From Thermoplasmatota archaeon (GTDB lineage: Archaea; Thermoplasmatota; E2; UBA202; JdFR-43), in NCBI GenBank assembly GCA_029259055.1, contig JAPDJP010000012.1:59883-123882 (forward strand): a stretch of DNA of 64,000 bases, read 5' to 3'. The number at the start of each line of letters is the position of its first letter. The first letter of the stretch is position 1. The notes beneath the pieces are model-generated. The model was not told where the DNA came from. It searched no databases and was given only the letters and a program-made list of their open reading frames with translations. The position numbers and the translations under genes were made by a program. Positions 21,802 through 61,975 of this stretch are shown piece by piece.

Positions 21802-21802
21802 T

Positions 21803-21967
21803 TTATCCCTCTAATGCTCCAACGGGGCAAAATTCGACACAGGTTCCACAATCAACGCATTTTTCATTTATTTCGATTCTAATCTCATGCAGTGTAATTG
21901 CATCTACTGGACATACGCCAACGCATCCTCCACAATATAGACAGGCATCATAATTTATCTTTACCAT
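21803..21967 (-). CDS. Small 2x[4Fe-4S] ferredoxin immediately upstream of (and co-oriented with) GGR; not in the ORF track
   Basis: Manual translation of the minus strand gives [54 protein letters not shown]. Its stop is 1 nt before the GGR ATG. Confidence 0.75.
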
Positions 21968-22021
21968 CGTTCAAAAAATACAGAAAGTTTTTATATTTTC
22001 CTATCTTCAAAAACTTTATTT

Positions 22022-22824: not shown

Positions 22825-24936
22825 TCATAGATTTATAATGAATACTTCCCTCTCATCCCACTCACTTTTTCCATTTGTTGCATATGCAACAACCTTTATT
22901 TTATATTCTCCTCTTGCTTTTTCATCCCATTTCCACTCAAAAGGCTCGTTCGAAACAGTTACCTTTAGCTCATCATTTATATAGAAATTAACTTTTTCTA
23001 ATTTTCCTGGTGGATCTGTTTCAACATTTACTTTAATTGTTATGCCACCAAGTATTATTGTCTTATTGATAAAACTGAAAAATGGGCCCCTATCTATTAC
23101 ATACAAACCATTTAATGGTTTAGTGATTTCTAAGCTTATGTTTATTTTTTCTTCAGGTTCTTTTATAGCTACTTGAGGGTCTCCAAATAAGTTTGTTTGA
23201 TAATACGTCCATCTCATTCCATTTTCATTTATTCTCCACACGTTATCTTCCTTAGAAAAATGATTTGCCCTTCCTACTTCTTTTATATCCTCTTCAAATA
23301 ATCCTTTGAAGAAGGATAAATCATATCTCTGGCCAGGAGAATCCGTACTATTTTCTCTTCCTAATCCATAACGAGAATTCATAATACAAGCAAAAGCTCC
23401 GTATTCATCACATGTTAAATGCTCTGCAAAACAGTCATCTTCATAATATCTATCTTCAGGATACCAGTTATCGAAAGAGCCAGCTAAGCAGGTTTGCGAA
23501 TATAAAAAGAAATATTTAGTGTTATGTAAAAGCTTCAAATCACTATTATGAAGTTTCAATGCATAAGTGGTCCATCCGTGCCCATCATGATTTATGATGT
23601 GTACTCCATTATTTATAACATCTGCCAAATTATATTTATCCCAATACATGAGTTTATCATACATTCTAGTTATATTGTATACGGGAGGAATCAATTTCAT
23701 AACTTCATCTTTATGATTTCCTCCCCATTCCGCCTCCCCGCCAAATCCTAAATATTCTCCAAGTAAAAGAACCTGTATTATGTAATTATCAGTAGTTTCT
23801 TCATACGAAATTGTTTTTTGAATAAAATTATTTACCTCCTTTATGTTATCAACGCAAGCTCTCCCGACCCATACTTCTGCGAATAAATCCGCTTCATCGC
23901 CATTTCCTTTGCTATTTTCAGTTGCATTTTCTCCCCATCTTGTATCATGGTCATTATTAAAGCTTCCATCTAAACAGGCATAGTATACATCAGATGGAAT
24001 ATACGCTTCTAAAACATCTTGATTATCTAAAGGCAAACCAACGGATGTTGCATATAAATAGCGGGGTGGTATTATATTACTGCTCTCATTTTTAATATCT
24101 CCATCCCCTCCTAACAAAACATAATCTATTCCCCAATTTAGATAGGCATATCTGATGAAATTTCTTATTTTTGCCTGAGTATCATTAAACATTCTCGTCT
24201 TATTCCAAAAATCTTTATTGTTAACGATTTCTTCAACACTTACAATTTTTGTTTTTATCCCTTTACTTTCTTTATACTCTGCAAGTTGCTGAAAAGCTTC
24301 TTTAAAATCATTAGCTGTTATTATCAAATATTCGTATTCTTCTAAAGCATCTTTAGTTGGGTATGTATCAATTATCCATGGATTATAAACAAATTTTCTA
24401 ATCCATTCTTTATCTTTCTTTAATCCCCTATACAATGGATTTACTTTTCCCTCCTTAAGCTCTATCTCCACTTTTATTTTATCTCTATAAAAAATTTTTC
24501 CATTATCATATGAAATTGGAAATATATTCATAACCAGTATATTATAACCTCTCAGCCCATATATGCCCACTTTTTCGTATAATTTTTCTATTTTGTTTCC
24601 ATGCTTTATTTCTATTTTTCTTCCTTTTATTATGATGGGTTTTTCCTTCTCTAAATTATAATTTCCTATAAATTTCTCTTCACCTTTTACAACTATCTTT
24701 TTTACATCTTTTTTAAAAGGTAATAAAATATAAACCGGCTTAACTGGTATCAACAAACCTTTATAATTATATGGATAACAACCTTCCAATTCTATTCTAT
24801 ATTCATTTCCTATCCGTTTTATTGTTGGTTTATCAAATTTAAATTCTAAAAGTATTTTTTCTTCCTTGGCAAAAGATGGAATAATTGTTGCTAAAAGCAT
24901 TATCATAACCATAAAACAAATTAACTTTTTTGTCAT
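22825..24936 (-). CDS. Secreted peptidase C25 (gingipain)-like protein with C-terminal Ig-like/beta-sandwich domain
   Basis: 703 aa. Signal peptide MTKKLICFMVMIMLLATIIPSFA. C25-like motifs DYVLLGGDGD...IPP, HIINHDGHGW (His) and SQTCLAGSFDNW (Cys). Confidence 0.55.
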   Translation of the reverse strand: MTKKLICFMVMIMLLATIIPSFAKEEKILLEFKFDKPTIKRIGNEYRIELEGCYPYNYKGLLIPVKPVYILLPFKKDVKKIVVKGEEKFIGNYNLEKEKPIIIKGRKIEIKHGNKIEKLYEKVGIYGLRGYNILVMNIFPISYDNGKIFYRDKIKVEIELKEGKVNPLYRGLKKDKEWIRKFVYNPWIIDTYPTKDALEEYEYLIITANDFKEAFQQLAEYKESKGIKTKIVSVEEIVNNKDFWNKTRMFNDTQAKIRNFIRYAYLNWGIDYVLLGGDGDIKNESSNIIPPRYLYATSVGLPLDNQDVLEAYIPSDVYYACLDGSFNNDHDTRWGENATENSKGNGDEADLFAEVWVGRACVDNIKEVNNFIQKTISYEETTDNYIIQVLLLGEYLGFGGEAEWGGNHKDEVMKLIPPVYNITRMYDKLMYWDKYNLADVINNGVHIINHDGHGWTTYALKLHNSDLKLLHNTKYFFLYSQTCLAGSFDNWYPEDRYYEDDCFAEHLTCDEYGAFACIMNSRYGLGRENSTDSPGQRYDLSFFKGLFEEDIKEVGRANHFSKEDNVWRINENGMRWTYYQTNLFGDPQVAIKEPEEKINISLEITKPLNGLYVIDRGPFFSFINKTIILGGITIKVNVETDPPGKLEKVNFYINDELKVTVSNEPFEWKWDEKARGEYKIKVVAYATNGKSEWDEREVFIINL

Positions 24937-26828: not shown

Positions 26829-29800
26829 CTATTTATGTTTTCTCCTTACCAAAAATATTGCTAAAGCCATTGCTATTGCAATAGCCAGTAATTCAAATCC
26901 TGGTGTTTCTGGAGCTGATTGCACATCTATTGTCTTTCTTGCTGAATAATACCCTTCTTTTTCTGCTGTTATAGTAATTGTGCCCTCCTTTTCAGGTGTA
27001 TATTTTATCTCTCCATTTGAATCTGTTGTTCCTATTGCCGCTCCATCTACTTTTACAAGAACACCATCAACAGGCTTACCTCCTCTGGTTGTAACTAGTA
27101 TTACTGCTTCCTTTCCTTTAACAAGCTTCTCTACAACGATTTGTAAACCGATCATTACATCTATTTCTCCAACTGCCTCTCCTTCTACTAATATCTTTAT
27201 TTTACCAGTTTGTAATGGTATTATACCAAATATTGCCTTTCCATTTTCGTCTGTTTCTCCTACCTTTATAGCATTTCCTCCACTTGTTGGAGTTATTATT
27301 TCGACATCAAGGCCAGCGCATCCTTCATTTGTTAATGGGTGTGTCACAACAATTGTTATCAGATTTTCTACACCTAAAAATGCTACTTTTTCTTTTGGTT
27401 CTTCAATTGTAACAGCTGGTGTAGTTACCTTTAGCACACCATACGCCTCTGCATATTCTCCTCCATCGGGCTTGAATTCGAAAGTAATATTTCCTACGTT
27501 AACTGCTGTAACATTTGTAATATTTCCTTTTCCATTTACTATATCGATGGTAATATTCTTACCAGCAACATATGCTTCATAACTTGCAACTTCCATTATT
27601 CCATATGCTTTCAGTGTACCATTAACTGGCTCATTCTCCCATGTTACTGTAAATGTTAATGTGATTTCCTTGTCAACATTTTTAACCAATAACCTTGGCT
27701 CAACACTTACACTTGCTTTTGTAACTTCAAATGATGGTTCCTTTCCAGTTTCAATATCATGTTTCCTATCTTTTGTACATACATATAGATAGTATTTTCC
27801 TGGCTCAGTTATTATATAATTTTTGAGTGTATAGTTTCCTTTACTTACCCTCGCAACAAGATCTGTTACATTGATTCCAACATCCTCAACATTTTTGCCT
27901 TCATGGAATTTTGTTAAAGCAGTTTCATTTAATATGTAGAAGTAGAAGTTTCCATCATAGCTCTTATTATCTTTAGTTATATTAATTTCATAATCTTGCT
28001 TGCTTCCAACTAATACTTTATCTGGAGAAAGAATAACTTCCAAATCATGAGCAGCCTCAGACGCAATGCATGCATAAGCGTATTGGACATCTGGCGCTCT
28101 AAATACTGCCATCGCAACAATATTAACTCCTGCTTTATCTGGTGTTATATTGGTAAATACAAATTCTCCTTGAGCATTGTATTCATTTTCTTTTTCTTTA
28201 ATCTTTTCCCATCCCACGGTACTTTCATAATAAGGAGGTATTTCATAGTATAAAATCAGATAATCAACTAAATTGATGGCATTACCTTCTGCTGTTTTTA
28301 CTATTGCTGAAATGTTATAAGTGTTGTCAACAATAACTTCTGTTGGACTAACTGTTAAATCTCCTCCCTTTACAATATTAACTACTTTTCCATCTTCTCC
28401 TTTATCAGGCCATGTAACATTTACATAAATCTTTCCATTTCCTTTTGTTGGAAATACTTTTATTTCCCAAGTACCTGTTGAATTATTAAATTCATATGCT
28501 CCTGGCGGTGGCGAATACAATATATCTCCTTCTATTTTGATAATGTCTGTAATATCTGCCCAATTTGTTAAATTAAAGGCATCTGGTGAACCAATTTCAT
28601 CAATTGACTCTCCATATATTTTAACATATAACACCCAAGTATTATTTGCTAAGTCTCTAACAGAAATATTCTCTGGTGTTACATATACATTGACTTTTGG
28701 AGGAGCAACAACTTCAAATGTTGTTTCTCCCACATACTCATATGTTTCATTGTCAACCATACTATTTCCTTCATAATTCTGTTTAATTCTTAATGTCCAT
28801 GTTCCTTTTTCTGGCCATTTCGCCTCAATTGCTAATTTGTAAGTATCTGTCAAAGATATGTTAAATACTTCTCCCATAACAGTTATTGAAACCGGCCCTT
28901 GTGTCAAATCAACATCTCCTGTGCTGTTTGATTCCTCTCCAAATGCTATTGTAATATTCGTTGGTTTTGACCAATCTATTGATACATTTGTATCATTATA
29001 TTTAACAATAAAGATTTTCTTACTTGGGAATCCCTGTCTTGCTTCGTCAGTAGAAACATCGGAGAATATTAACGTATTTGGCAATATCTTTGCCCATGCA
29101 TATCCTCCAAGCTCTGGAGTTGCATCTCCAGTAGTGTTTTTACTTGCAGTAATATTAAATATACCCACGCCCGGCAATCCCATAACATTTATTGTAAAGT
29201 TTGCTCCTGTTTGGTCTATAATGAGTTGGTCAGCTACGTTGTTATTGCCATTTTCATCAATCCAATATGTTACAATTTGGGCACCTTCTACATATTTTCC
29301 ATCCTTATCTTTAATTGTTACATCAAAATTATATCCCTCTGTTTGGCTCTTCTTTTGTTCAAATATGTAATGGGTTGGTGAAATTTCTATTGTTAGAGGT
29401 GATGGATTAACTTTAAAGAATATCTCCCATCCTTGTCCAACATCCTTTATTATCCAATTTCCTACGGTATCTAACAAAATATTCTCAAAAGTTGCCCTTC
29501 CTTCACTATCCGCTCTTCTTTGGGCAACTCTTTCCGTTTCTCCCGGCTTCCACAACTCTATTGTATCTCCAGGTGTCGCATTATAAATTTCCATAGTTAC
29601 TGTTTCTGTATAGTTAGCGGAAGAAGGTCTAACCTCAAAATTAGGAATAATCGTAAAGTTAAATTCTGCCGATTTATTGGTATTGCCATACATATCTTCT
29701 GCCCATATGTAATAGGTATATAAACCAGTAGTGTTATAAGAAGCATTGTAATAATAGCTTCCCTGATTCATTGTCTTATTTACATGGAATCCCTCTGGTC

Positions 29801-30497
29801 CGCTAATATCAACTTTTACAACCGTAACAGCAGTATTATCAGTTACATTGCAAGTTATATTTACATATTTTGTCGCTTTTTGTTGTTGTGGAGTTGCTTT
29901 TACCTCAGTTATTACTGGCGGGATAATATCCCATACGCTGTTTAACGCTCCTGGTGTTCCTCCTTCTACCAGGCTTTGCTTCCATTCATTATCAACTGTT
30001 CTTTCTGCGCTATAATTTTCAGCATAATTACCTGGATAATGTACAGAGTCCACTAACTCTCCTATTGAATTAGATAAATTTACCCAACCTCCAGTATCTG
30101 CTAATGATGTCCAATTTCCTTGTAAAATAGGGCAAGTAATATCTGGATAGCGACTCTGGAAGGCTGTTATGTTTTTTGCTACTATTAAATATTCGTTTCC
30201 GTCCAATATTCCGCTTAATACTGTATTTCCTCCAATTGTTCCATTTATAACCCATCCTGTTATATTTACTTCCTCTGTTCCGAGATTATAAATTTCTATC
30301 CATTCATAATCATCTGAACCTGCTGGATTATACATTATTTCATTAATTACAACATTTGTAGCTAATGCAACTGTTGCTCTATTTGCTGGAAATATTGCGA
30401 ATGCGCTTGCTATTATAGCTGCTATAATTACCAAACTTCCAACCTTTTTAATTAGCCTTTTTCCATACATTTTATTCCCCCTTCTATAAGTTGGCAT
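26829..30497 (-). CDS. Giant cell-surface protein: N-terminal signal/TM, lamin-tail domain (LTD), multiple Ig-like / carboxypeptidase-regulatory-like domains, C-terminal PGF-CTERM archaeosortase sorting signal
   Basis: 1222 aa. LTD signature VINEIMYNPAGSDDYEWIEIYN. C-terminus ...SAPETPGFELLAIAIAMALAIFLVRRKHK (PGF plus TM helix plus basic tail). CarboxypepD_reg-like ITAEKEGYYSARKTIDV. Confidence 0.75.
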   Translation of the reverse strand: MPTYRRGNKMYGKRLIKKVGSLVIIAAIIASAFAIFPANRATVALATNVVINEIMYNPAGSDDYEWIEIYNLGTEEVNITGWVINGTIGGNTVLSGILDGNEYLIVAKNITAFQSRYPDITCPILQGNWTSLADTGGWVNLSNSIGELVDSVHYPGNYAENYSAERTVDNEWKQSLVEGGTPGALNSVWDIIPPVITEVKATPQQQKATKYVNITCNVTDNTAVTVVKVDISGPEGFHVNKTMNQGSYYYNASYNTTGLYTYYIWAEDMYGNTNKSAEFNFTIIPNFEVRPSSANYTETVTMEIYNATPGDTIELWKPGETERVAQRRADSEGRATFENILLDTVGNWIIKDVGQGWEIFFKVNPSPLTIEISPTHYIFEQKKSQTEGYNFDVTIKDKDGKYVEGAQIVTYWIDENGNNNVADQLIIDQTGANFTINVMGLPGVGIFNITASKNTTGDATPELGGYAWAKILPNTLIFSDVSTDEARQGFPSKKIFIVKYNDTNVSIDWSKPTNITIAFGEESNSTGDVDLTQGPVSITVMGEVFNISLTDTYKLAIEAKWPEKGTWTLRIKQNYEGNSMVDNETYEYVGETTFEVVAPPKVNVYVTPENISVRDLANNTWVLYVKIYGESIDEIGSPDAFNLTNWADITDIIKIEGDILYSPPPGAYEFNNSTGTWEIKVFPTKGNGKIYVNVTWPDKGEDGKVVNIVKGGDLTVSPTEVIVDNTYNISAIVKTAEGNAINLVDYLILYYEIPPYYESTVGWEKIKEKENEYNAQGEFVFTNITPDKAGVNIVAMAVFRAPDVQYAYACIASEAAHDLEVILSPDKVLVGSKQDYEINITKDNKSYDGNFYFYILNETALTKFHEGKNVEDVGINVTDLVARVSKGNYTLKNYIITEPGKYYLYVCTKDRKHDIETGKEPSFEVTKASVSVEPRLLVKNVDKEITLTFTVTWENEPVNGTLKAYGIMEVASYEAYVAGKNITIDIVNGKGNITNVTAVNVGNITFEFKPDGGEYAEAYGVLKVTTPAVTIEEPKEKVAFLGVENLITIVVTHPLTNEGCAGLDVEIITPTSGGNAIKVGETDENGKAIFGIIPLQTGKIKILVEGEAVGEIDVMIGLQIVVEKLVKGKEAVILVTTRGGKPVDGVLVKVDGAAIGTTDSNGEIKYTPEKEGTITITAEKEGYYSARKTIDVQSAPETPGFELLAIAIAMALAIFLVRRKHK

Positions 30498-44056: not shown

Positions 44057-44686
44057 ATGCAAATAAATGAAATATTTTATTCAATACAGGGAGAAGGAAC
44101 AGATATGGGACTTCCTACAATTTTTATCCGATTTACCGGTTGTAATTTAAGATGTAAATATTGTGATACCAAATACGCATTTTATGAAGGGAAAAAAATG
44201 AGTATAAAAAATATTTATGAAATAATTAGTAAATGGAGGTGTAATAGAATTTGCATAACAGGAGGAGAACCTTTATTGCAGGATGAAGTATATGATTTAA
44301 TCGATTTTCTTTTGAAAAAAGATTATAAAGTTAGCGTTGAAACAAATGGTTCTATCGATATATCTAATCTTGCAAAAAAAGATGTAATTATTAAAATGGA
44401 CATTAAGCTACCTTCTTCTGGAATGCATGAAAAAATGAAGCTGGAAAATATTTATATGCTAGGAGATAAAGATGAACTAAAATTTGTTATAGGCAGCAAG
44501 GAAGATTACAAATATGCAAAAAAAATAATTGAAGAATATAAACCGAGATGCAACATAATTTTTCAACCTGTATGGAAAAAATTGGATGCAAAAAACCTTG
44601 CGGAATGGATTTTGGAAGATATGCTAAATGTTCGTCTTTCTATCCAGCTTCATAAAATTTTATGGGGGGAGGAAAGAGGAAAATAA
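44057..44686 (+). CDS. queE: 7-carboxy-7-deazaguanine synthase QueE (radical SAM)
   Basis: 209 aa. FIRFTGCNLRCKYCDT is the QueE-type CxxxCxxC motif. Confidence 0.85.
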   Translation: MQINEIFYSIQGEGTDMGLPTIFIRFTGCNLRCKYCDTKYAFYEGKKMSIKNIYEIISKWRCNRICITGGEPLLQDEVYDLIDFLLKKDYKVSVETNGSIDISNLAKKDVIIKMDIKLPSSGMHEKMKLENIYMLGDKDELKFVIGSKEDYKYAKKIIEEYKPRCNIIFQPVWKKLDAKNLAEWILEDMLNVRLSIQLHKILWGEERGK

Positions 44687-44844: not shown

Positions 44845-44858
44845 AAAAATAAAAAAAT

Positions 44859-46079
44859 TTATTTCAATATTATTTCGTCTCCATTTTCCGGGATGTATAC
44901 ATTTACGTCTATTTCCTCTGCAATAGCTTCTGGATTATCAGAATGGAAAATAACAACGTTTTCGGGAGAACAATCCTTTATAAATTTGATGAGTTGGCTG
45001 TGGCCTGCGTGGGCGGAAAAATCGTAAAATTTTACTTGGCAATTCACTTTTGTTCTTACCCCATATAAATCTATTTCTCTGTTTTCTAAAAGCATTCTGC
45101 CATTCGTCCCTTCTACTTGATAACCAGTTATTATGACTGCAGATTTTGGGTCATCTTTTATTTTATCCACATACCATAGCACAGGCCCCCCATTCATCAT
45201 TCCACTGGTTGTCAAAACAACGCCTGCTTTTAATGCAAGTTTTTTTCCATGCTCTGAATAAACAATTTTTAATTCCCTAATAGCTTTCTTTAATTTTTCT
45301 GCAGATTTAATGTAATTTCCATGTTTCAAAATAATATCGGATATTTTGTATCCCATTCCATCAAGCCATACTTCGTGCCCGCTTTTATACAAAATCATAG
45401 CAAGTTCTTGCGTTCTTCCAACCGCAAATGCTGGTATTATTACCTTTCCACCTCTATTAACAATATCTTCTATTTCATCTAAAAATTCTTTCTCAAGTTC
45501 TTTTCTATCAGGATGTTCAACTCCTGCATAAGTTCCCTCTATAAACAAATTTTTGCATTTTATTGGCTTTGCTCCTTTTAATAAATGCGTCTCAATAGTA
45601 TTTATATCACAGGCAAAAACCGTTTCAAATTCTTTTATTTCAATTATCACTGAGCCCGGTATGTGACCCGCAGGATGAAACTCAACTTCTAAATCATTTA
45701 TTATATATTTTTTCTTATCATTTATATAAACAAATTTATCTAAACTATTTTCAAGCTCTTCTTCTCCATATGGAAATGGATGACCTTTTGTATCAGCAAT
45801 TTTTAAAGTATCTCTATATAATATTTCAGATATTTCTTTAGTTAAAGCTGTTGTATAAACTTTTGTATTGTATCTATTACAAATCCACGGAATCATGCCA
45901 GAATGATCCAAATGAGCATGACTTAAAATTGCGTAATCAACTGGGGGAGATTCCATAGGATAAATCGGGGGTTCTTCCGGTGTTAAACCATAATCAATAA
46001 GGAGTTTCTTACCATTAAAATTACTTAAAATGCCAACTCTGCCTACTTCTCTCGCTCCGCCGAGGAATTTTGCAATCAT
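44859..46079 (-). CDS. Metallo-beta-lactamase / beta-CASP family ribonuclease (aCPSF2/RNase J-like, COG1236)
   Basis: 406 aa. HAHLDHSG motif II and downstream beta-CASP motifs (...HPAGHIPGS...SAHAG...). Confidence 0.75.
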   Translation of the reverse strand: MIAKFLGGAREVGRVGILSNFNGKKLLIDYGLTPEEPPIYPMESPPVDYAILSHAHLDHSGMIPWICNRYNTKVYTTALTKEISEILYRDTLKIADTKGHPFPYGEEELENSLDKFVYINDKKKYIINDLEVEFHPAGHIPGSVIIEIKEFETVFACDINTIETHLLKGAKPIKCKNLFIEGTYAGVEHPDRKELEKEFLDEIEDIVNRGGKVIIPAFAVGRTQELAMILYKSGHEVWLDGMGYKISDIILKHGNYIKSAEKLKKAIRELKIVYSEHGKKLALKAGVVLTTSGMMNGGPVLWYVDKIKDDPKSAVIITGYQVEGTNGRMLLENREIDLYGVRTKVNCQVKFYDFSAHAGHSQLIKFIKDCSPENVVIFHSDNPEAIAEEIDVNVYIPENGDEIILK

Positions 46080-46116
46080 TTTTAATGTAAAAAATTTTTT
46101 ATATTAATATTTTTGC

Positions 46117-46617
46117 TCACTGCTGTTCATACCTCTCTATTTTCATTCCTCTATATTCAAGTTTCTCTGAACGCTTTACAATACATCTCATTTGAACAGG
46201 AGATAAAGATAACTCTCTTTCAATTTCCCTACTTAATTCTCCTTCCTCACCTACTCTTTCATAAATTTTTTCTTCTATTTCCTTAAATTTTTCATCGTCC
46301 ATTAAAACAATTGAAAAAACATCTCTTATTACATCAATAGATGTCATTACATTTATATGAAAAGCTGTATAAAATGCATGATATTCTTTTTTTGCTTTTC
46401 CATTTTCTGACATTATCCATCTTGTTTCAACCATTTTTACTTTTTCAAAAAACTTCAAAGCTTTTTTCCCATCTTCTCCATATTTTTCTTCTATTTCTTC
46501 CATTGTTTTCCAATCTTTAGAAACTTCATTAAAAACCTGTCTTTTTATATCTGTATCAAAAGCTTTTGATAGCCATGATAAATCTGTAATATCATTTATT
46601 AATTTAGCTTGCATCAT
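46117..46617 (-). CDS. Hypothetical protein (possible winged-helix regulator)
   Basis: 166 aa. Charged, with no clear motif. Confidence 0.35.
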   Translation of the reverse strand: MMQAKLINDITDLSWLSKAFDTDIKRQVFNEVSKDWKTMEEIEEKYGEDGKKALKFFEKVKMVETRWIMSENGKAKKEYHAFYTAFHINVMTSIDVIRDVFSIVLMDDEKFKEIEEKIYERVGEEGELSREIERELSLSPVQMRCIVKRSEKLEYRGMKIERYEQQ

Positions 46618-46660
46618 AAAAATATATGCAATTTTAGCTTAAATTTCTATGCTTTTTGTT

Positions 46661-47503
46661 TTATTCTTTTTGGGCAATCGCTATACCAACTAAGACAACA
46701 AATCCAGCCAAAATCGTTAACAATTTCATTTCTTCTCTTAATAAAATATGAGAAAATATTATTGAAAATATTGGTATTAAATATACAAAAAAAGACAATT
46801 TTGATATTTCCATTTTTTCCATTGCAGAATACCACAATATGTATGCGATAAATGTTGGAAAAACAGCAAGAAATATTATATATTTTAATGCTGTTATTTC
46901 AACCAAAATTTTTTCAGTAAAAATGAAGGGAAAAATAAAGAAAGTTCCTAAAACGGATGAATATGCTATTACTTGTATTGGCTTATAACCTTCATTTAAT
47001 AAATCCTTAGCTATTATCCCTCCAATTGAATAGCATATTGCAGAAAGTAAGATTAAAATATTACCAATTAAATCCCCTCCGCCTGTCGGGCTTGCTATTA
47101 AATATGTTCCAGAAAAAGCCAAGAATATTCCTATAATTTTATTTTTTGTTATTTTTTCATTTAAGAAAATATATGCAAGGATTATTACATAAATTGGCCC
47201 AGTGCTTTGCAAAAATCCAGAAATATATGCTGAAGTATATTTTAATCCAATATTTTGCAATATAACAGGAGAACTTACTCCTATAAATGCTAGTAAGGCA
47301 ATTTTTTTTAATTTTTTTGGCGTTTTAAATATTCTTCTTTCTAAAATTAAAATTAAAAAAAGAAATAAAATAGATGCCAATAAATACCTAAGAAAGGCAA
47401 ATAGAATGGGAGATATGCTACTTAATGCTAACCTTACAACTGGAAAAGAAGAACCCCATATGGAAGCAGATATACATGCAAACGCAATCTCTTTTAATTT
47501 CAT
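46661..47503 (-). CDS. EamA/DMT-family transporter (two EamA repeats, 10 TM)
   Basis: 280 aa with the hydrophobic pattern of two EamA domains. Confidence 0.8.
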   Translation of the reverse strand: MKLKEIAFACISASIWGSSFPVVRLALSSISPILFAFLRYLLASILFLFLILILERRIFKTPKKLKKIALLAFIGVSSPVILQNIGLKYTSAYISGFLQSTGPIYVIILAYIFLNEKITKNKIIGIFLAFSGTYLIASPTGGGDLIGNILILLSAICYSIGGIIAKDLLNEGYKPIQVIAYSSVLGTFFIFPFIFTEKILVEITALKYIIFLAVFPTFIAYILWYSAMEKMEISKLSFFVYLIPIFSIIFSHILLREEMKLLTILAGFVVLVGIAIAQKE

Positions 47504-47958
47504 TATATTATCTGAGAAGAAATATCTTCTGGCTCTCTATCACAATAAAAGCATTTTATCTTTAGTGGATTTCTACTTTTTACTATAAATTTTGGCTGTA
47601 TTGGTTCATTTGTATTTGATATGCAATTTGGATTAGCGCATTTAACAATTCCAATAATCTCATCTGGAATGGTGACTTTCCTTTTTTCAACTACTTCATA
47701 ATTCCTTATTATATTAATTGTGGCATTTGGGGCAATTAATGCGATTTTATTTACTTCTTCTGGATCTAGCTCCCTGTTTTCAATTTTAACAATATCTTTT
47801 TTTCCTCTTTTACCAACAACATTCATTGCTATACTTATTATTGAATCTGGTTGTTTTTCAAGCAATCCTAAAATTTTCAAAACTTTTAATGCATTTCCTG
47901 GTGTAATGTGGTCGATAACTGTTCCGTCTTTAATTGGCTGGACTTTTAATTCCTTCAT
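47503..47958 (-). CDS. pyrI: Aspartate carbamoyltransferase regulatory subunit PyrI
   Basis: 151 aa. N-terminus [16 protein letters not shown]-terminal Zn domain CANPNCISN...CFYCD. Confidence 0.9.
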
Positions 47959-47970
47959 CTATTCACCTCC

Positions 47971-48903
<933 letters not shown>

Positions 48904-48911
48904 TTAAATTC

Positions 48912-50567
48912 TTATACATTATATATTTCTTTGTATATTGGAGAATTTACGATTTCTTCTTTTCTTTCTCTAAATCTTTCCACTCTCTCTTTTGCTTCTA
49001 TAGATTTCTTCATAAGAATTTCTGCTCTTTTGCCAACAACTTTATTTTTCTCTAAAAATTTGTCTCTGTGGATATGAGGAAATACATTATAAGTGCAGAA
49101 AGGGATTAAATGAGGAGGAGCTAAATAATGTATGCTACATCTTTTAGTTCTATTTACATCATAATTGTAATAATCTTGGAAATGCATCATTCCTAAAAAT
49201 AAAAATCTATGATGGAATTTTCCTAAAGCCCTATAGTCTCCTTTTTCTATTACTTCATTTAATATCTCTGATAATTTTTCTCCATTTGGTAACTCATCTT
49301 CTATAATATATTCTGCTAATTTCTTTGCTAAAGCTTTTCTTAAACTTCCATATTTTATTGCGGTTGGCAATAATTTTGCTCCAAAAATTGCTTTTTTAAT
49401 AGCGCTTTTTTGCAATTCGGACACATCTTTTATGAAGCGGTCAACGTCTATGAAATGGGTAATTGGGAGTAATTTCTCACCATCTACATAAGCATATGTT
49501 GCCATACCACATTTCTCACTATTATAAAAATGAACATGTGGTTCTTTTCCTATTATATCTGCAAGAGAGGCAACAGTTGGAACGGGATACCATGCTTCTA
49601 TTCCAAAATTAAAGACTTTTTTCATTTCATAAATAATATCTGATTGAACAACCCTAAGCTTTTCTCTATCTCCTTTTTTAATATGTCCAACTAAGGAAAT
49701 TGGCTGGAAATTTACTCCTCTTATTCCTCTGCTTATATTTCTCATCGCAAATTTAACTATAAATGGCGTTTCCTTTAAATTTAATTGACTCACTGTAGGA
49801 ACAAGAACTATGCTTTTTAATCCTCCCTTTATATATGCTTCTAAAGCAAAAGGAGCTTCGTAATGATTTTTTGGATTGCTATTTTGCTTGGGAGATATTC
49901 CATCAAATGATGTATATACCGTTTTTAAACCAGCCTTAACCCATGAAGCCACTCTTCTTATTGCTTTTTCTGGTTCTTCAAAATATTCTATTCCAATTGA
50001 AACTGAATCAGTATTTAGTTGAACATGCGGGGAGCCCATTTCCCTCATCATTTTTATCATTTCTGCTAAATCGTCTCTTAAAGTTGGCTCTCCTCCAGTG
50101 ATTTGAATTGGTGGCATGTATCCATTGAATTCTTTTGCAATTTCTAATCCTTTTTTAATTTCCTCTAATGTGGGCTCATAAATAAAGCCAGCTTTTTCTT
50201 CATAAAAAAAACAATACCAGCATCTTAAGTCGCATCTATTAGTAGCGACAACATTTAATAAAGCTGTAGTATTTTTATGTTGATTGCATAATCCACAACT
50301 AACTAAATCTTCCTTATGTGTTATATTTGTGTTTATTTTGGCGATTTGGCTTGGTTTATATTTGATTATTTTGTCCCAATATTCTTTTGTTCCTATTCTT
50401 TCTATTGTTCCGTTCTCTTTAACTAAATATACATTATTATTTTTTTCAACATAGGCAGCATTTATTATTTTAATGGCATTTTCCTTTTGCAAAAAAATTT
50501 CATCGATACTTTTTGTTAATTCTAATATTGTAAAACCATTCTGCTTGGCATATTCTTCTATAAGCAT
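48912..50567 (-). CDS. Large radical-SAM protein (551 aa) of unassigned function, adjacent to a GGR-family flavoprotein
   Basis: NRCDLRCWYCFF CxxxCxxC motif after a ~110-aa N-terminal extension containing CGLC. ...QITGGEPTLRDD. Confidence 0.7.
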   Translation of the reverse strand: MLIEEYAKQNGFTILELTKSIDEIFLQKENAIKIINAAYVEKNNNVYLVKENGTIERIGTKEYWDKIIKYKPSQIAKINTNITHKEDLVSCGLCNQHKNTTALLNVVATNRCDLRCWYCFFYEEKAGFIYEPTLEEIKKGLEIAKEFNGYMPPIQITGGEPTLRDDLAEMIKMMREMGSPHVQLNTDSVSIGIEYFEEPEKAIRRVASWVKAGLKTVYTSFDGISPKQNSNPKNHYEAPFALEAYIKGGLKSIVLVPTVSQLNLKETPFIVKFAMRNISRGIRGVNFQPISLVGHIKKGDREKLRVVQSDIIYEMKKVFNFGIEAWYPVPTVASLADIIGKEPHVHFYNSEKCGMATYAYVDGEKLLPITHFIDVDRFIKDVSELQKSAIKKAIFGAKLLPTAIKYGSLRKALAKKLAEYIIEDELPNGEKLSEILNEVIEKGDYRALGKFHHRFLFLGMMHFQDYYNYDVNRTKRCSIHYLAPPHLIPFCTYNVFPHIHRDKFLEKNKVVGKRAEILMKKSIEAKERVERFRERKEEIVNSPIYKEIYNV

Positions 50568-50663
50568 TGGCTATCTATTTCTTTTTTATATATTAAATTT
50601 TCTTTTAGTTTCTTTAAATTTTAAATAAAAATTAAAAAAAATTAAAAAATTAAAATTAATAAA

Positions 50664-51716
50664 TTACCATCCCCATTTTAATGAATGACAAAATGCCTTA
50701 TAAATTTTGTACATTTTAAGAAGCGTAGAGGGATGCCATAATAAATGGAATAAATCCCAAAATTTTATTTCTTTTAATTCTTTACCGTTAATCTTCTTAT
50801 AAAACATTTCCATTTCTTTTTCTTCGGTTTTAAATATTGTTTCCATACCTTTAATTAGCACTGGATTAAGAATAGGATGCTTTTTAATTTCTTTTTCATA
50901 CTTTTCCAAATCATTTATGTTTCGGGCAAGTATTTCAGCAGCATATATTATTGGGGAAAGACCGCCAAGTGAGAAAGGATTTGTTAAGCAAGCTGCATCT
51001 CCAATAAGAGCTACTTTTTTATCTGCTATTCTTTGAACACTACCAACTGGAATGGCTCCGCCGGTTTTTTTAATGATTTTTCCTTTTATATTTTTATATC
51101 TTAAAAATTTATCAAGCATTGAAAATTTCCCAATTAGCCCAACATTTATACTTTTTTCTTTTGGGAAAATCCAAGCATAGTAATGGGAAAATTTTCTATC
51201 TGTATAGAACTCTAAATAATCCATATTTTCTGTATCATATTCTATTTCATATTGGCACCCTATCATATAATTGTATGTATTACCAAAATATTCTTTTATA
51301 ACTGAAAAAGGACCATCTGCCCCTATACATATTTCATATTTCTCTTTTTCTCCATTTATATAAATATATTTGTTATCAATTTTTTCCACTTTTTTTGAAA
51401 ATTCAATTTCTCCCCCTCTTTTTAAAAATTCATGAGCCATTTTTTCTAACCATTTTTGCCTATTTAATACCATGCCATCAACATCTACATAAAAAAACCA
51501 TTTTCCAAAGAACATTTTTATTCCTTTAACTTTTTTTGCTATTGCTTCCTCATAATCAAAAGGCAGTTTTTTTAAAGATTTTTCATCACAACCTTCTCCG
51601 CAAGCTGTGCTTCTTATTTCTCTATTTTTTTCAAAAATTTTCACATCATAACCTCTATCAATCAAAAATAAACCAGTTATTAAACCAGCGGGGCCTGCCC
51701 CAACAATATATATCAC
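50664..51716 (-). CDS. Geranylgeranyl-reductase-family FAD-dependent oxidoreductase (second GGR-like paralog)
   Basis: 350 aa. IYIVGAGPAGL dinucleotide-binding N-terminus and a CGEGC motif. GGR/FixC-like. Confidence 0.7.
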   Translation of the reverse strand: MIYIVGAGPAGLITGLFLIDRGYDVKIFEKNREIRSTACGEGCDEKSLKKLPFDYEEAIAKKVKGIKMFFGKWFFYVDVDGMVLNRQKWLEKMAHEFLKRGGEIEFSKKVEKIDNKYIYINGEKEKYEICIGADGPFSVIKEYFGNTYNYMIGCQYEIEYDTENMDYLEFYTDRKFSHYYAWIFPKEKSINVGLIGKFSMLDKFLRYKNIKGKIIKKTGGAIPVGSVQRIADKKVALIGDAACLTNPFSLGGLSPIIYAAEILARNINDLEKYEKEIKKHPILNPVLIKGMETIFKTEEKEMEMFYKKINGKELKEIKFWDLFHLLWHPSTLLKMYKIYKAFCHSLKWGW

Positions 51717-51759
51717 GATTTTATTATTGCTTTATATATATATTTTTCATTAGGTTCAT

Positions 51760-52962
51760 ATGGATATTATCTGCGGTAGAATTTATATTGGAGAATTAAT
51801 CAATGCATGCATTGGCATAGAAAATGGAAAAATAGTTAAGATTAAAAAAAATTTGGAAGGAAGAAAAATAGATTATGGTAATTTAGTCATTTTCCCAGCT
51901 GGTATAGACGTACATGTTCATTTTAGAGAGCCTGGCTATGAATATAAAGAAGATTTTTTTACTGGAAGTAGAGCGGCTGCGCTGGCGGGCATAACTTGTG
52001 TTCTTGATATGCCCAATAATATGCCGCCAATCATAAATAAGGAAAGATTCAATGAGAAAGTTAAAAAAATTAAAAATAAGGCATGCATAGATTATGGATT
52101 ATATGGCGGGGTAAGAAAAGATGGAAAAATGGAAGATATGGATTGTATTGGATACAAAATTTATTTAACTGAAGTTTCTTGTCCTATTGAAAACGTTTTA
52201 AAGGAGCTAAAGAGGTTTAATAAACCTGTTGCTGTCCATGCAGAATATAATATTAATGAAGACAAAATAAAAAATTTGGAGGAGCATGAAAGAAATAGAG
52301 GGAAAGAATGCGAGCTAACAGCTTTGAAAAGATTAATTGAAGCAAATGAAAAAATAGGTGTAAAGATGCACATATGTCATATTACAACTAGCGATTCGAT
52401 TGATATAATAAAAAATAGAACAAGCTATGGAGTTACTCTTCATCATTTATTGTTTTCTTACGAAAGAAAATTTAAAGTAGAAGCAATGGGAAAAGTCAAT
52501 CCACCTTTGAGGAGCGAGGAAGAAAGAAAAAAACTATATGAAAGATTTATAAAAGGAGATATACCTATTTTAGAATCAGACCATGCTCCTCATTCGTTTG
52601 AAGAAAAGATGAAAATTTGGGATGCCCCATCTGGTATGCCCGGCGTTGATGCCTTATTGCCGATAATGCTTTATAAAGTAAAGAGGGGGCTTAACATTGA
52701 TTTATTATATAAAATGGTGTGTAAGAATCCATCCGATTTTTTTGGTATAAATAAGGGTAGTATTCAAGTTGGGAAGGATGCTGATTTTATAATCATTGAT
52801 TTTAAAAAGGAGAGTAAAATAAAGGCATTATCAAAATGTGGGTGGAGTTGTTATGAAGGAATGAAATGTATATATCCAAAACATGTTTATCTAAGGGGAA
52901 ATAAAATTGTTGAAAATGGTGAATTTGTTGGAGACAAGGGAAAAGGAAAGATGATAAAATGA
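51760..52962 (+). CDS. pyrC: Dihydroorotase PyrC (cyclic amidohydrolase family)
   Basis: 400 aa. DVHVHFREPG metal-binding HxH motif. Adjacent to the pyrBI region. Confidence 0.8.
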   Translation: MDIICGRIYIGELINACIGIENGKIVKIKKNLEGRKIDYGNLVIFPAGIDVHVHFREPGYEYKEDFFTGSRAAALAGITCVLDMPNNMPPIINKERFNEKVKKIKNKACIDYGLYGGVRKDGKMEDMDCIGYKIYLTEVSCPIENVLKELKRFNKPVAVHAEYNINEDKIKNLEEHERNRGKECELTALKRLIEANEKIGVKMHICHITTSDSIDIIKNRTSYGVTLHHLLFSYERKFKVEAMGKVNPPLRSEEERKKLYERFIKGDIPILESDHAPHSFEEKMKIWDAPSGMPGVDALLPIMLYKVKRGLNIDLLYKMVCKNPSDFFGINKGSIQVGKDADFIIIDFKKESKIKALSKCGWSCYEGMKCIYPKHVYLRGNKIVENGEFVGDKGKGKMIK

Positions 52963-53420
52963 ATTTAATAGATTTTTTGTTGATTATTTTATTATCGATG
53001 CTTCCTTTTTGGGAAGCAAGATATACCATCCCGTTTATAATAGCAAAATATAAGGTTAATATTTTTTTGATATCTATAGCAATTTTAGCTAATTTTGTTC
53101 CTGTTCCTTTTATTTTAAAATTTTTAGAACCCATTGAAAAATGGTTAAGGAAATGGAGATTTTGGGATAATTTGCTTAATAAAATTTTTGAACATACTAG
53201 GAAAAAAACAAAAAGAAGTATAGAAAAATGGGAAAGTCTCGCTTTAATCGTTTTTGTTGCTATTCCATTACCTGTAACAGGTGCATGGACTGGGAGTTTG
53301 GCGGCTTACCTTTTTGGATTGGATTTTAAAAAATCTTTGATTTGCATTTTTATTGGCATATGCATTGCCTCAATAATCATATCAATTGCTTCTATTACGG
53401 GGATAAGACTGCTTAAATAA
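52959..53420 (+). CDS. Small multi-TM membrane protein (COG2426-like putative small exporter)
   Basis: 153 aa, four hydrophobic helices. Confidence 0.4.
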   Translation: MNLIDFLLIILLSMLPFWEARYTIPFIIAKYKVNIFLISIAILANFVPVPFILKFLEPIEKWLRKWRFWDNLLNKIFEHTRKKTKRSIEKWESLALIVFVAIPLPVTGAWTGSLAAYLFGLDFKKSLICIFIGICIASIIISIASITGIRLLK

Positions 53421-54578: not shown

Positions 54579-54794
54579 GTGTGTTTAGCTATACCAGGAA
54601 AAATTATTGAAATAAGGGGAAAGAAAGCAAAAGTGGATTATGGAGGAATATTAAGAGATGTTGATATTTCATTGGTTGATGCAAAAGAAGGAGATTATGT
54701 TATAGTGCATGCTGGCTTTGCGATACAAGTTTTAGATGAAAAGAATGCAATCGAAACATTAAAAATATTTGAAGAAATAGCAAAAAATGCATGA
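54579..54794 (+). CDS. hypC: Hydrogenase maturation factor HypC
   Basis: 71 aa. MCLAIPGKIIEI N-terminus. Confidence 0.8.
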   Translation: MCLAIPGKIIEIRGKKAKVDYGGILRDVDISLVDAKEGDYVIVHAGFAIQVLDEKNAIETLKIFEEIAKNA

Positions 54795-55191
54795 ATTTTC
54801 TACTATGCAACAAATTATTAATACTGTTTTAGAAGAAGCTAAAAAATACAATGCCAAAAAAATTTATAAAATTGTTTTGGAAATAGGAGAACTCACTTTT
54901 CTTGGAGAGGAGCAATTAAAGTTTGCTTTCGATATTTTGAAAGAGGGAACAATTGCTGAGGAGGCGGAGCTTGTAATTAAAAAAATAAAGGCAAGAATAA
55001 AATGTAAATGTGGATATGAAGGATATGTTGAATATGGTATAAAAGATGATTTTCATCTTGTTTTCCCTATAATAAAATGTCCAATTTGCAATAATGAAGT
55101 AGAAATTGTTAGGGGAAGGGAATGCCTAATAAAAAAAATGGAAATGGAGGTTGAAAATGGAAAAAAAGAAAATCGCGGAAAAGATTGTTGA
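54787..55191 (+). CDS. hypA: Hydrogenase nickel-insertion protein HypA
   Basis: N-terminus MHEFS. Zn site CKCGY...CPICN. Confidence 0.8.
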   Translation: MHEFSTMQQIINTVLEEAKKYNAKKIYKIVLEIGELTFLGEEQLKFAFDILKEGTIAEEAELVIKKIKARIKCKCGYEGYVEYGIKDDFHLVFPIIKCPICNNEVEIVRGRECLIKKMEMEVENGKKENRGKDC

Positions 55192-56245
55192 GGGAATTAG
55201 GCAATTAAACTTGAATCTTAAAATAATGCATGTATGCGGGACACATCAAGATACTATAGTGAGGTATGGATTGGGTGATTTATTAAGAAAATGCGGAATA
55301 GAAGTTATTCAAGGACCTGGCTGTCCAGTTTGCGTAACTACCCCATTAGAAATAGAAAAAGGGATTAGATTAGCTGAAAAGGGGATTACTCTCGCAACTT
55401 TTGGGGACATGATAAGGGTTCCTTCTAGAAATAGAACACTTGAAAAAATAAGAGCAAAAGGAGGAAAAGTAAAGATTGTTTATAGTATAAGTGATGCATT
55501 AAAAATTGCTGAAAAAGAAGAAGTAGTTTTCTTTGCTGTTGGTTTTGAAACAACAGCTCCATCAACTGCCGTTACAATATTGAATGAGCCAAAAAATTTT
55601 TATGTACTCAGCTGTCATCGTTACATTCCTCCCGCTTTGGATGCCTTGCTTGGGCTTGGGGAAGTAAGAATAGATGGTATAATTTGTCCGGGACATGTTT
55701 CAACTATAATTGGGATGAAGCCCTATATTCCGATTGCAAAAAAATATAAGATTCCTCATGTAATAGCTGGTTTTGAACCCCTTGATGTGTTATTAGCTGT
55801 GTATATGATCGCTAAGCAGGTTGATGAAGGAAGATATGATGTTGAAAATGAATATATAAGATGTGTTAGATACGATGGAAATGAAAAAGCAAAGAAAATA
55901 TTGAATGAGGTTTTTGAGCCCGTATCAGCAAAATGGAGAGGATTTCCAGAAATAGAAAAATCAAAAATGGAAATTAAAAAAGAATTCGAAGAATATGATG
56001 CAGAGAAAATATATGAGGACCTTTTAGAAGATATTGAGGAGCCGGAAGAGCCGAAAGGCTGTAGATGTGGGGATGTTTTAAGAGGGGTTATTTATCCTCA
56101 GCAATGTCCTTTATTTGGCAAAATATGCAATCCTTCTAATCCTGTAGGGCCATGCATGGTGAGTATTGAAGGAGCATGTAACATTGAATATAAATATGGT
56201 AAAATGTATTTGAATAATGATAGAAATAAAAACTGGAACAATTGA
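55151..56245 (+). CDS. hypD: Hydrogenase maturation factor HypD
   Basis: 364 aa. CGTHQD, GPGCPVC and CPGH motifs, with a C-terminal CxxH...C cluster. Confidence 0.9.
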   Translation: MKMEKKKIAEKIVEGIRQLNLNLKIMHVCGTHQDTIVRYGLGDLLRKCGIEVIQGPGCPVCVTTPLEIEKGIRLAEKGITLATFGDMIRVPSRNRTLEKIRAKGGKVKIVYSISDALKIAEKEEVVFFAVGFETTAPSTAVTILNEPKNFYVLSCHRYIPPALDALLGLGEVRIDGIICPGHVSTIIGMKPYIPIAKKYKIPHVIAGFEPLDVLLAVYMIAKQVDEGRYDVENEYIRCVRYDGNEKAKKILNEVFEPVSAKWRGFPEIEKSKMEIKKEFEEYDAEKIYEDLLEDIEEPEEPKGCRCGDVLRGVIYPQQCPLFGKICNPSNPVGPCMVSIEGACNIEYKYGKMYLNNDRNKNWNN

Positions 56246-60925: not shown

Positions 60926-61975
60926 GTGAAAAAACTCGAAAAGAATTCATTTTACGTTGGAAAGTTAGCAGAAGGCTGTAAAATATGCAGAAAGGGTGCA
61001 AAACTTGTTTTACTTGTAACTGGATTATGTAATGCAAATTGCTTTTATTGTCCATTATCAGAAAAAAAGAAGGGGAAGGATGTCATATATGCAGATGAAA
61101 TGATTGTAAGAAAAAAAGAAGACATTATTGAAGAAGCAGAATTAATAGAAGCGGAAGGAACAGGAATTACTGGAGGGGACCCTCTTATTGTATTGGACAG
61201 GACAATAGAATTTATAAAACTTTTAAAGAATTATTTTGGGGAGGAGCATCATATCCATTTATATACTGCTACTCTTGATTATAAAAAAGCAGAAAAATTA
61301 GGGAAAGCAGGATTAGATGAAATAAGGTTTCATCCAATGCCTACTTTATGGAAAAAAATAGAGAAAACAAAATTTAGAGAAATAGTAAAGAAACTGGAAA
61401 TTGATAAAGGGATGGAAATTCCCTTAGTTCCGCATATGAAAAAGGAAACTTTTCATTTATTAAAAGTAGTGGATGATTATAATTTAGATTTCATTAATTT
61501 AAATGAACTTGAATTTTCAATAACTAATCTTGAAGCATTAGATAAATATGGATATGTTGCAAAAAGCGATGAATCATCTGCTGTTAAAGGTAGTGAAGAA
61601 ATGGCATATGAAATTTTAGATTTAGGATTATCTACTCCTATACATTATTGCTCCTCTTCTTTTAAAGATGCTGTTCAATTAAGAAAAAGAATAGAAAGGA
61701 GAGCAAGGAATGTTGCAAAAATTTATGAAATCATAACAGAAGATGGAACTTTATTGAAAGGCGTTATAATGGCTGATAAAGAAAAAATAAAAGAAATTAT
61801 GGAAGAATTTGAAATAGATGAAAACATGATTTCATGGGATGAAAAAAAGAAAAGGATAGAAACTTCTCCTTTTATTATTGAAGAAATTGCCCAGTATTTA
61901 CCATATAAATGCTATATTATTGAGGAATATCCTACTGCAGATAGGCTTGAGGTTGAAATAACTCCTTTAAACTAA
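60926..61975 (+). CDS. Radical-SAM protein of unknown function (PFL-activase-related, COG2108-like)
   Basis: 349 aa. TGLCNANCFYCP CxxxCxxC motif and GGDPL. Confidence 0.65.
   Translation: MKKLEKNSFYVGKLAEGCKICRKGAKLVLLVTGLCNANCFYCPLSEKKKGKDVIYADEMIVRKKEDIIEEAELIEAEGTGITGGDPLIVLDRTIEFIKLLKNYFGEEHHIHLYTATLDYKKAEKLGKAGLDEIRFHPMPTLWKKIEKTKFREIVKKLEIDKGMEIPLVPHMKKETFHLLKVVDDYNLDFINLNELEFSITNLEALDKYGYVAKSDESSAVKGSEEMAYEILDLGLSTPIHYCSSSFKDAVQLRKRIERRARNVAKIYEIITEDGTLLKGVIMADKEKIKEIMEEFEIDENMISWDEKKKRIETSPFIIEEIAQYLPYKCYIIEEYPTADRLEVEITPLN

Follow-up and report, generated by a model that had tools for sequence, protein, structure and literature searches.

In a 64,000-nucleotide stretch of DNA from a Thermoplasmatota archaeon (contig JAPDJP010000012.1 of assembly GCA_029259055.1; hereafter the window), a gene for a 551-aa radical S-adenosylmethionine (SAM) protein (48912..50567, minus strand) lies beside a gene for a 350-aa flavoprotein with a geranylgeranyl reductase (GGR) fold (50664..51716, minus strand, GTG start). 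We conclude that the radical-SAM protein is probably a member of the tetraether synthase (Tes) family, from a subfamily without the rubredoxin site, and that it adjoins the GGR paralog only through one inversion of ~28.6 kb. This reading draws on homology, fold, residue conservation and synteny. The preliminary description of the locus had its layout right: the 551-aa open reading frame (ORF) carries CGLC at residues 91–94 and CX3CX2C at C112/C116/C119, the two genes share an orientation and are 96 bp apart, pyrB and pyrI lie downstream and a divergent pyrC upstream, and a separate canonical GGR is encoded near 20.6 kb. Its central proposal, a paired lipid-tailoring module, did not survive comparison with related loci.

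Membership of the radical-SAM protein in the Tes/GDGT-MAS family (GDGT, glycerol dialkyl glycerol tetraether) is supported by sequence profiles and by its predicted structure. Against the NCBIfam Tes model NF045702 it scored 429 bits over positions 10–483 of 486 of the hidden Markov model (HMM), and its only strong match in the PDB was MJ0619, i.e., GDGT-MAS (7tol_A; phmmer E of 2.9e-75, residues 51–507), with viperin second at an E of 4.8e-05. An AlphaFold2 model from a 78-sequence alignment (predicted local distance difference test, pLDDT, 91.1; predicted template-modeling score, pTM, 0.91) contains the four-domain GDGT-MAS fold. Foldseek aligned this model with 7TOL over 518 columns (E of 1.8e-41, target-normalized template-modeling (TM) score 0.86, root-mean-square deviation 3.1 Å, 33% identity), and the second-ranked fold was MoaA with a query TM score (TMq) of 0.33. 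The phmmer E value and the Foldseek identity lie within the working criterion for Tes homology, which is itself framed for BLASTP (E < 1e-50 plus >30% identity to a characterized Tes; Zeng 2022, PMC8941075). The profile and structure comparison that the preliminary description had proposed thus placed Tes first by HMM, PDB match and fold.

Three other identities were considered and rejected. The preliminary description had left the choice between a Tes/Grs-like enzyme and something else; the matches to NF045702 and 7TOL bear out a Tes-like enzyme, and a Grs-like one was ruled out since PF04055 (65.8 bits, covering C112-X3-C116-X2-C119) is the sole domain detected, no B12-binding domain was found and the best fold match is GDGT-MAS. 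Neither Grs nor B12-dependent radical-SAM models occurred among the best 25 of 31 NCBIfam matches. A tRNA or cofactor enzyme was ruled out as well, with models for MoaA, NrdG, PqqE, viperin and the like reaching at most 55 bits against 429 for Tes; the closest homology is therefore not to a non-lipid radical-SAM family, the result that had been named in advance as fatal to a lipid role. Gms, the glycerol monoalkyl glycerol tetraether (GMGT) synthase, was weighed since it also has no rubredoxin domain (review PMC13459092), and was set aside on the end-to-end alignment with Tes and MJ0619.

The catalytic core appears intact, as judged from the residues described for MJ0619. That enzyme has four metal sites (PMC9433317; PMC13459092): a rubredoxin iron bound by C9, C12, C33 and H36 (spacing C9-X2-C12-X20-C33-X2-H36), a [4Fe-4S]N cluster bound by C73, C77, C80 and a His, the radical-SAM cluster, and a [4Fe-4S]C cluster with three Cys plus the labile Met439. 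Met439 and Tyr459 are fully conserved across 1000 homologs (PMC9433317). Residues were mapped through the phmmer alignment to 7tol_A, in which the numbering of the crystallized chain is the native one + 20. Met439 and Tyr459 correspond to M461 and Y481, both invariant over 78 homologs, canonical Tes included, and the same holds for C91, C94, C112, C116, C119, C353, C477 and C491. Beyond the N-site and radical-SAM positions exactly three invariant Cys remain, which fits a C-terminal site of three Cys plus Met; from this invariance and the published description we assign C353/C477/C491 and M461 as putative [4Fe-4S]C ligands. In the SAM loop, Gln268 and Ser271 are conserved as Q288 and S291, and Arg275 aligns to H295.

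The N-terminal metal sites are reduced. Residues 1–90 contain no Cys; where canonical Tes has its knuckles, SVCPxC...KxCPEH, the aligned sequence here reads SIDE...K-ENGT. PF23545, present in canonical Tes matches, is absent from the rubredoxin-less clade, and AlphaFold2 still places a small beta domain at the N-terminus with high confidence despite the lost rubredoxin ligands. At the N-site, C77, C80 and H83 of MJ0619 correspond to C91, C94 and H97, and C73 to D87, leaving a remnant of D87, C91, C94 and H97, plus H84, that is one Cys short. Inspection for auxiliary-cluster Cys, as advised in the preliminary description, accordingly recovered the putative C-terminal ligands and neither the rubredoxin ligands nor the first N-site Cys.

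Such reduction is widespread among the 111 homologs surveyed, all of which carry the CG[LIVM]CxxH motif. Only 21 are canonical, with the N-cluster CX3C and the rubredoxin CxxC both present; the rubredoxin CxxC is absent from 4 that have the CX3C, 9 that have a CX2C and 77 that have no third N-site Cys. Within the last group His occurs at −7 (H84 here) in 58 and Asp at −4 (D87) in 52, and His at −7 is found in none of the 34 homologs that keep the third Cys. This His could mark a replacement ligand, a reading that is confounded by shared ancestry. Residues 84–97 correspond to window positions ~50277..50318 (minus strand). In a midpoint-rooted neighbor-joining tree the rubredoxin-less proteins form a single clade with the N-cluster-intact forms P0090 and P0093 at its base (P-numbers and L-numbers label the proteins and loci compared), a topology that suggests stepwise loss of the metal sites. 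Clade members score 403–484 bits against NF045702, straddling the cutoff of 450, compared with 706–739 for canonical Tes. They occur in metagenome-assembled genomes (MAGs) of Thermoplasmatota, Bathyarchaeota, Iainarchaeota/Diapherotrites and Aenigmarchaeota, and the named relatives are called merely 'radical SAM protein' at NCBI. In the literature searched, we came across no published Tes that lacks the rubredoxin site. Clustering of flanking ORFs over 32 loci gave sublineage synteny only, and no partner, be it a ferredoxin, a flavodoxin or another protein, that is conserved with the clade's radical-SAM gene. A relative at 74% identity has an rve-family integrase/transposase gene just upstream of its Tes-like gene (L082, 1625..2530), which fits frequent rearrangement around this gene.

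The radical-SAM gene and the flavoprotein gene are not a conserved lipid-tailoring module. In 43 clade-member loci, of which 11 are from species-representative genomes, 2 from look-ups and 30 from metagenomes, with some duplicates, the 350-aa paralog was never found beside the radical-SAM gene, and none of the six archaeal loci of flavoprotein orthologs (L084–L089) had a Tes gene next to it. The preliminary description had itself tied its paired module to conservation in relatives, and the pairing is missing there. Each gene instead has its own setting. Flavoprotein orthologs (58–68% identity) are always divergent from pyrC and Sm_multidrug_ex, with Band_7 or beta-helix genes behind them; the pyrC/Sm_multidrug_ex arrangement is the same in L084, L086, L087, L088 and L089, and L085, L087 and L088 share the order GGR-like, Band_7, C25 peptidase, tRNA synthetase. 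On the radical-SAM side, the order in L001 and L090 (89% identity) is GGR and ferredoxin on one strand, divergent from radical-SAM, pyrB, pyrI and EamA, and the GGR–ferredoxin/radical-SAM order recurs in L010 and L114 (78–79%). The pyrB–pyrI–EamA block downstream of the Tes-like gene in L001 and L090 is 75–97% identical in amino acid sequence, and the canonical GGR of the window is 84% and 82% identical to the genes directly upstream of the radical-SAM gene in L001 and L010, respectively. In the nearest relative, MAG GCA_964503915.1 (CAZDCH01; 89%), the Tes-like and GGR-like genes lie on separate contigs, L001 and L084.

Comparison of these orders with the window locates the rearrangement. The relatives have [GGR and ferredoxin leftward / radical-SAM, pyrB, pyrI, EamA rightward] and [pyrC leftward / GGR-like, Band_7 rightward]. 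In the window the first junction, at 20.6–25 kb, joins the canonical GGR (390 aa, digeranylgeranylglycerophospholipid reductase type; 20629..21801, minus strand; TIGR02032 229.5 bits, above the cutoff of 158.8) and a gene for a 54-aa 2x[4Fe-4S] ferredoxin with two Fer4 domains (21803..21967, minus strand) to a Band_7/SPFH gene (22022..22798, plus strand) and a converging C25 peptidase gene (22825..24936, minus strand), both identified by Pfam. The second junction, at 47.5–53 kb, joins pyrC (51760..52962, plus strand; TIGR00857 318.9 bits, above the cutoff of 279), which is followed by the small membrane protein gene Sm_multidrug_ex (52959..53420, plus strand; PF06695), and the flavoprotein gene to the radical-SAM gene and, on the same minus strand, pyrB (47971..48897), pyrI (47503..47958) and the EamA transporter gene (46661..47503), assigned by Pfam and NCBIfam. 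Blastn divided the window accordingly: 50614..44853 (radical-SAM, pyrB, pyrI, EamA and beyond) matched L001 2679..8423 at 83%, and 20633..22012 (canonical GGR and upstream region) matched L001 1273..2654 at 81%, whereas 53406..50665 (Sm_multidrug_ex, pyrC, GGR-like) matched L084 5162..7912 at 74% and 22035..22195 (Band_7) matched L084 7946..8106 at 82%.

These blocks are consistent with one ~28.6-kb inversion, which accounts for both junctions, with breakpoint 1 at 22013..22034, between the ferredoxin–GGR promoter region and the Band_7 gene, and breakpoint 2 at 50615..50664, in the AT-rich 96-bp spacer between the radical-SAM and flavoprotein genes (50568..50663, minus strand). A pair of independent translocations could also explain the junctions, though less parsimoniously. 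The order in the relatives is taken as ancestral because it is common to lineages at 89% and 78–79% identity on the radical-SAM side and at 58–68% on the flavoprotein side; the Tes-like gene would thus adjoin the flavoprotein gene through a lineage-specific inversion, and a recent one. Repeats flanking the breakpoints were limited to AT-rich matches of 7–9 bp, which is at chance level. Both breakpoints fall within promoter-type intergenic regions beside the two GGR-family genes. An assembly chimera, fusing two unrelated regions at the low-complexity spacer, might be suspected from the very AT-rich 96-bp stretch at the junction and from the separate contigs of the two genes in the closest MAG, but an independent assembly (L081, Logan SRR22214787) crosses the junction with the same pyrC/GGR-like–radical-SAM–pyrB layout, 99.5% identical over 10.2 kb, and the window also holds the reciprocal junction at ~22.02 kb that a real inversion predicts. 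The adjacency is therefore no misassembly, and the chimera can be dismissed as a practically negligible prospect.

The upstream DNA of the radical-SAM gene speaks for a transcription unit of its own. T-tracts lie in the spacer directly past the flavoprotein stop codon, and the radical-SAM gene keeps ~47 bp of its original upstream DNA with a TATA-like element, TTTAATATATAAAAAAG, at about −30 to −15 of its ATG that is common to L001. From the T-tracts and the retained, TATA-bearing DNA we infer that the gene is likely transcribed independently of the flavoprotein gene. A scan of the locus for sigma-70 promoters and terminators, a method unsuited to archaea, gave no enrichment over shuffles. It could be argued that the inversion made a new operon by setting the GGR paralog upstream of Tes, the two now being co-transcribed and cooperating, e.g., on the saturation of Tes substrates or products. 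The shared orientation and 96-bp gap, the recovery of the arrangement in two assemblies (the window and L081) and the existence of tight Tes–GGR-family pairs in other archaea (6 bp apart in L013, 0 bp in L024) would agree with this. Yet the pairing occurs in 0/43 related loci, the conserved partner of the flavoprotein gene is pyrC, the GGRs adjoining Tes in L013 and L024 are of a different subfamily (24–26% identity), and the T-tracts and the TATA-like box shared with L001 point to separate expression. We regard such a new operon as very unlikely.

The flavoprotein itself has, by motifs and model, the GGR fold. It is presumably a prenyl reductase, forms part of a short subfamily of its own and is a paralog of the canonical GGR, to which it is 31% identical. 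The earlier placement in the GGR family was sound as regards fold and catalytic motifs, although the curated cutoffs were missed: TIGR02032 gave 127.5 bits against 158.8, PF22578 26.1 against 27, and the two equivalog models for digeranylgeranylglycerophospholipid reductase 70 against 580 and 45 against 780. Its motifs, GAGPAG at 6–11, ACGE (C38), YAWIFP at 179–184 and GDAA at 239, are invariant or nearly so over 81 family members. The Cys of the CGE motif is reportedly catalytic, a view that goes back to the structure study of Ta0516. The first Pro of PxxYxWxFP (motif named in PMC10821996) is replaced by Ser. An AlphaFold2 model (pLDDT 95.4) matched 3OZ2 (Ta0516 GGR) best in Foldseek (TMq 0.83), followed by the Sulfolobus acidocaldarius GGR (TMq 0.78). 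The family of ~350-aa flavoproteins extends over Thermoplasmata and also Chloroflexota/Dehalococcoidales. In a Chloroflexota MAG, the gene just ahead of an ortholog of 46% identity encodes a squalene/phytoene synthase (SQS_PSY; L121, 162..2190), which hints that some members of the family reduce C30/C40 isoprenoid hydrocarbons. The bacterial contexts vary (SQS_PSY in L121, radical-SAM/SPASM in L122, nothing lipid-related in L120) and were rejected as too variable for a substrate call.

The more informative neighbor of the Tes-like gene is ancestral. The 54-aa ferredoxin gene, overlooked in the preliminary description, ends 1 bp before the start codon of the canonical GGR and is kept in L001, L010, L090 and L114. 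It is probably co-transcribed with the canonical GGR and, by analogy with MA_1485 of Methanosarcina acetivorans, probably encodes the electron donor of the reductase. In that organism MA_1484 (GGR), MA_1485 (ferredoxin) and MA_1486 (Tes) form the trio through which Zeng et al. arrived at Tes (PMC8941075), and the lipid cluster goes back to Isobe et al. 2014, as cited in the same paper. The GGR-linked Tes copy is active, and the unlinked MA_1114 gave trace macrocyclic archaeol only (Zeng et al. 2022). An ancestral ferredoxin–GGR linkage like that of the active MA_1486 supports, by analogy, a core lipid role for the Tes-like gene. Around canonical Tes, a GGR-family gene occurs within 10 kb at ~9/69 loci. 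In a Thermoproteota MAG (L013, 2224..5208) a canonical Tes gene is followed after 6 bp by a 411-aa GGR-family gene, and in Candidatus Methanodesulfokora washburnensis (L024, 3210..6077) after 0 bp by a 381-aa one, GGR_cat being above cutoff in both; each locus also has a homologous 364/381-aa gene on the other strand. These pairs may be true operons in their lineages. The general idea of a link between Tes and GGR genes is correct, but the ancestral partner in this case is the canonical GGR with its ferredoxin, a link already described for M. acetivorans (PMC8941075).

Several observations nevertheless weigh against reading the protein as a Tes that came to lie beside the flavoprotein gene by chance. 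It falls below the NF045702 equivalog cutoff (429 versus 450 bits), two of the four metal sites of MJ0619 are absent or incomplete, and Arg275 of MJ0619 is H295 here. No cultured carrier of the clade was found among the cluster-member names. The weak output of MA_1114 illustrates that a Tes homolog need not make GDGTs efficiently, and a canonical Tes elsewhere in the genome would make the 551-aa protein a paralog that may have a different role. Read-through transcription across the 96-bp gap between the co-oriented genes is also possible.

The protein, like the rest of the rubredoxin-less clade, might instead be a neofunctionalized Tes paralog that makes no GDGTs and performs another radical C–C coupling or lipid modification (e.g., formation of macrocyclic archaeol only, or action on another substrate), the GDGTs being made by a canonical Tes encoded elsewhere. 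The loss of two metal sites and the equivalog scores, with canonical Tes >200 bits above the clade, would be in line with such a shift, for which the weakly active second homolog MA_1114 is a precedent, and both Tes types occur in the same phyla (Bathyarchaeia, L007 versus L064/L065/L069; Iainarchaeum, L009 versus L055; Aenigmarchaeota, P0078 versus L051/L060). Against this, the residues of MJ0619 catalysis are kept (radical-SAM motif, C-cluster with three Cys and Met, Tyr459, Gln268 and Ser271), the ancestral site beside ferredoxin–GGR resembles that of the functional MA_1486 and not that of MA_1114, and there is no second Tes-like gene within the window. We consider a neofunctionalized paralog unlikely.

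As a rubredoxin-less Tes, the enzyme would be expected to act as described for MJ0619 (PMC9433317), and it is from that enzyme that we infer catalytic activity, substrate and cofactor content. SAM would be reductively cleaved at the C112/C116/C119 cluster, and the resulting 5'-deoxyadenosyl radical would take a hydrogen from a terminal methyl group of one saturated phytanyl chain. The chain radical so formed would sit on a sulfide belonging to the C-terminal [4Fe-4S] cluster (putative ligands C353/C477/C491 and the labile M461) until the partner chain, activated by a second SAM, is coupled to it by a C–C bond, yielding a biphytanyl chain. Archaeol-type diethers could in this way be converted to GDGT, glycerol trialkyl glycerol tetraether (GTGT) or macrocyclic archaeol. 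With the rubredoxin site and the first N-cluster Cys lost, electrons probably reach the enzyme by another route. The inversion would have split the Tes-like gene from the divergent ferredoxin–canonical GGR operon and set it behind the pyrC-linked GGR paralog. Tentatively, the clade could represent a naturally minimized Tes that retains only the radical-SAM and C-terminal clusters, perhaps with a re-ligated N-site (His84/Asp87/Cys91/Cys94/His97), in which a separate ferredoxin, ancestrally that of the neighboring GGR, replaces the rubredoxin/[4Fe-4S]N wire; or uncultured hydrothermal Thermoplasmatota, Bathyarchaeia and DPANN might couple lipids to another product, the loss of cofactors being a mark of that shift.

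Most of what the locus shows is ordinary; its one moderately interesting point is that this Tes subfamily has fewer cofactor sites and scores at the edge of the annotation threshold. The presence of Tes serves to infer the GDGT capacity of uncultured archaea, and GDGTs are the lipids behind TEX86-type proxies. Because the clade straddles the annotation cutoff and 'radical SAM protein' is the only name that its named relatives carry, the capacity for GDGTs may be under-called in hydrothermal Thermoplasmatota, in DPANN and in some Bathyarchaeia. A natural Tes without the rubredoxin site and part of the N-cluster also offers a direct test of whether the surface cofactors are dispensable electron-transfer accessories. 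Finally, side-by-side lipid-family genes can be the accident of one inversion, and the informative link between Tes and ferredoxin–GGR is seen in relatives only.

The remainder of the window, which has a G+C content of ~31% and whose nearest relatives are hydrothermal-site MAGs of Thermoplasmata and Thermoplasmatales, contains further genes of note. Genes for sulfhydrogenase-type NiFe hydrogenase subunits (HydB-like, 3236..4261; HydA-like, 5866..7134) occur together with hypA and hypD for maturation (regions 3236..7134 and 54787..56245), which suggests an anaerobic, H2-metabolizing way of life resembling that of Thermococcales. Two smaller radical-SAM proteins, each with PF04055 and Fer4_12, are encoded on the plus strand. 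One is a 349-aa protein with CNANCFYC at residue 35 and no NCBIfam assignment (60926..61975), and L086 and L087 have a gene of like size and domains (plus DUF8061) near the pyrC/GGR-like block. The other is a 209-aa QueE-like protein unrelated to the lipid genes (44057..44686). Large secreted-type proteins are encoded on the minus strand at 17993..20410, 22825..24936 and 26829..30497, a set comprising two C25-family peptidases, one of them fused to NosD/beta-helix repeats, and one 1222-aa lamin-tail-domain protein; in relatives, C25 and beta-helix genes of a similar kind are again found close to the GGR-like gene. An Rfam scan of the window gave zero matches.

Among characterized reductases, the flavoprotein is most readily compared with Ta0516 of Thermoplasma acidophilum (3OZ2) and the S. 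acidocaldarius GGR (3ATQ/4OPT), with which it shares the fold, the flavin adenine dinucleotide (FAD)-binding GxGxxG, the CGE Cys, YxWxFP and GDAA. It is ~40–100 residues shorter than these and 23% identical to 3OZ2; no ferredoxin gene adjoins its own, and the conserved neighbor is pyrC. As in the L013 and L024 pairs, a Tes gene adjoins a co-oriented GGR-family flavoprotein gene, but theirs is a canonical Tes with the rubredoxin Cys, and the reductase, which comes after Tes and not before it, is from another GGR subfamily.

The three gene types of the M. acetivorans trio MA_1484–1486 also stand side by side in L001/L090 and L010/L114, from the nearest relatives, with GGR and ferredoxin divergent from the Tes-like gene. 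In the window the trio is split, with ferredoxin–GGR at 20.6–22.0 kb and the Tes-like gene at 48.9–50.6 kb, and its Tes member comes from the subfamily without the rubredoxin site. MA_1114, compared by description only, is likewise a Tes homolog distinct from the mainstream, functional one, but it is not GGR-linked, whereas the window gene is ancestrally so. With MJ0619 (7TOL/7TOM; Lloyd et al. 2022, PMC9433317) the window protein shares the fold, the CX3CX2C motif, the three Cys and Met of the putative C-cluster, the Tyr and the SAM-loop Gln and Ser. It differs in having none of the rubredoxin ligands C9, C12, C33 and H36 while keeping the small N-terminal beta domain, in the reduction of the N-cluster C73-X3-C77-X2-C80...His to D87...C91-X2-C94...H97, in the His at the position of Arg275, and in an extra C-terminal helical tail of ~45 residues, as in crenarchaeal Tes.

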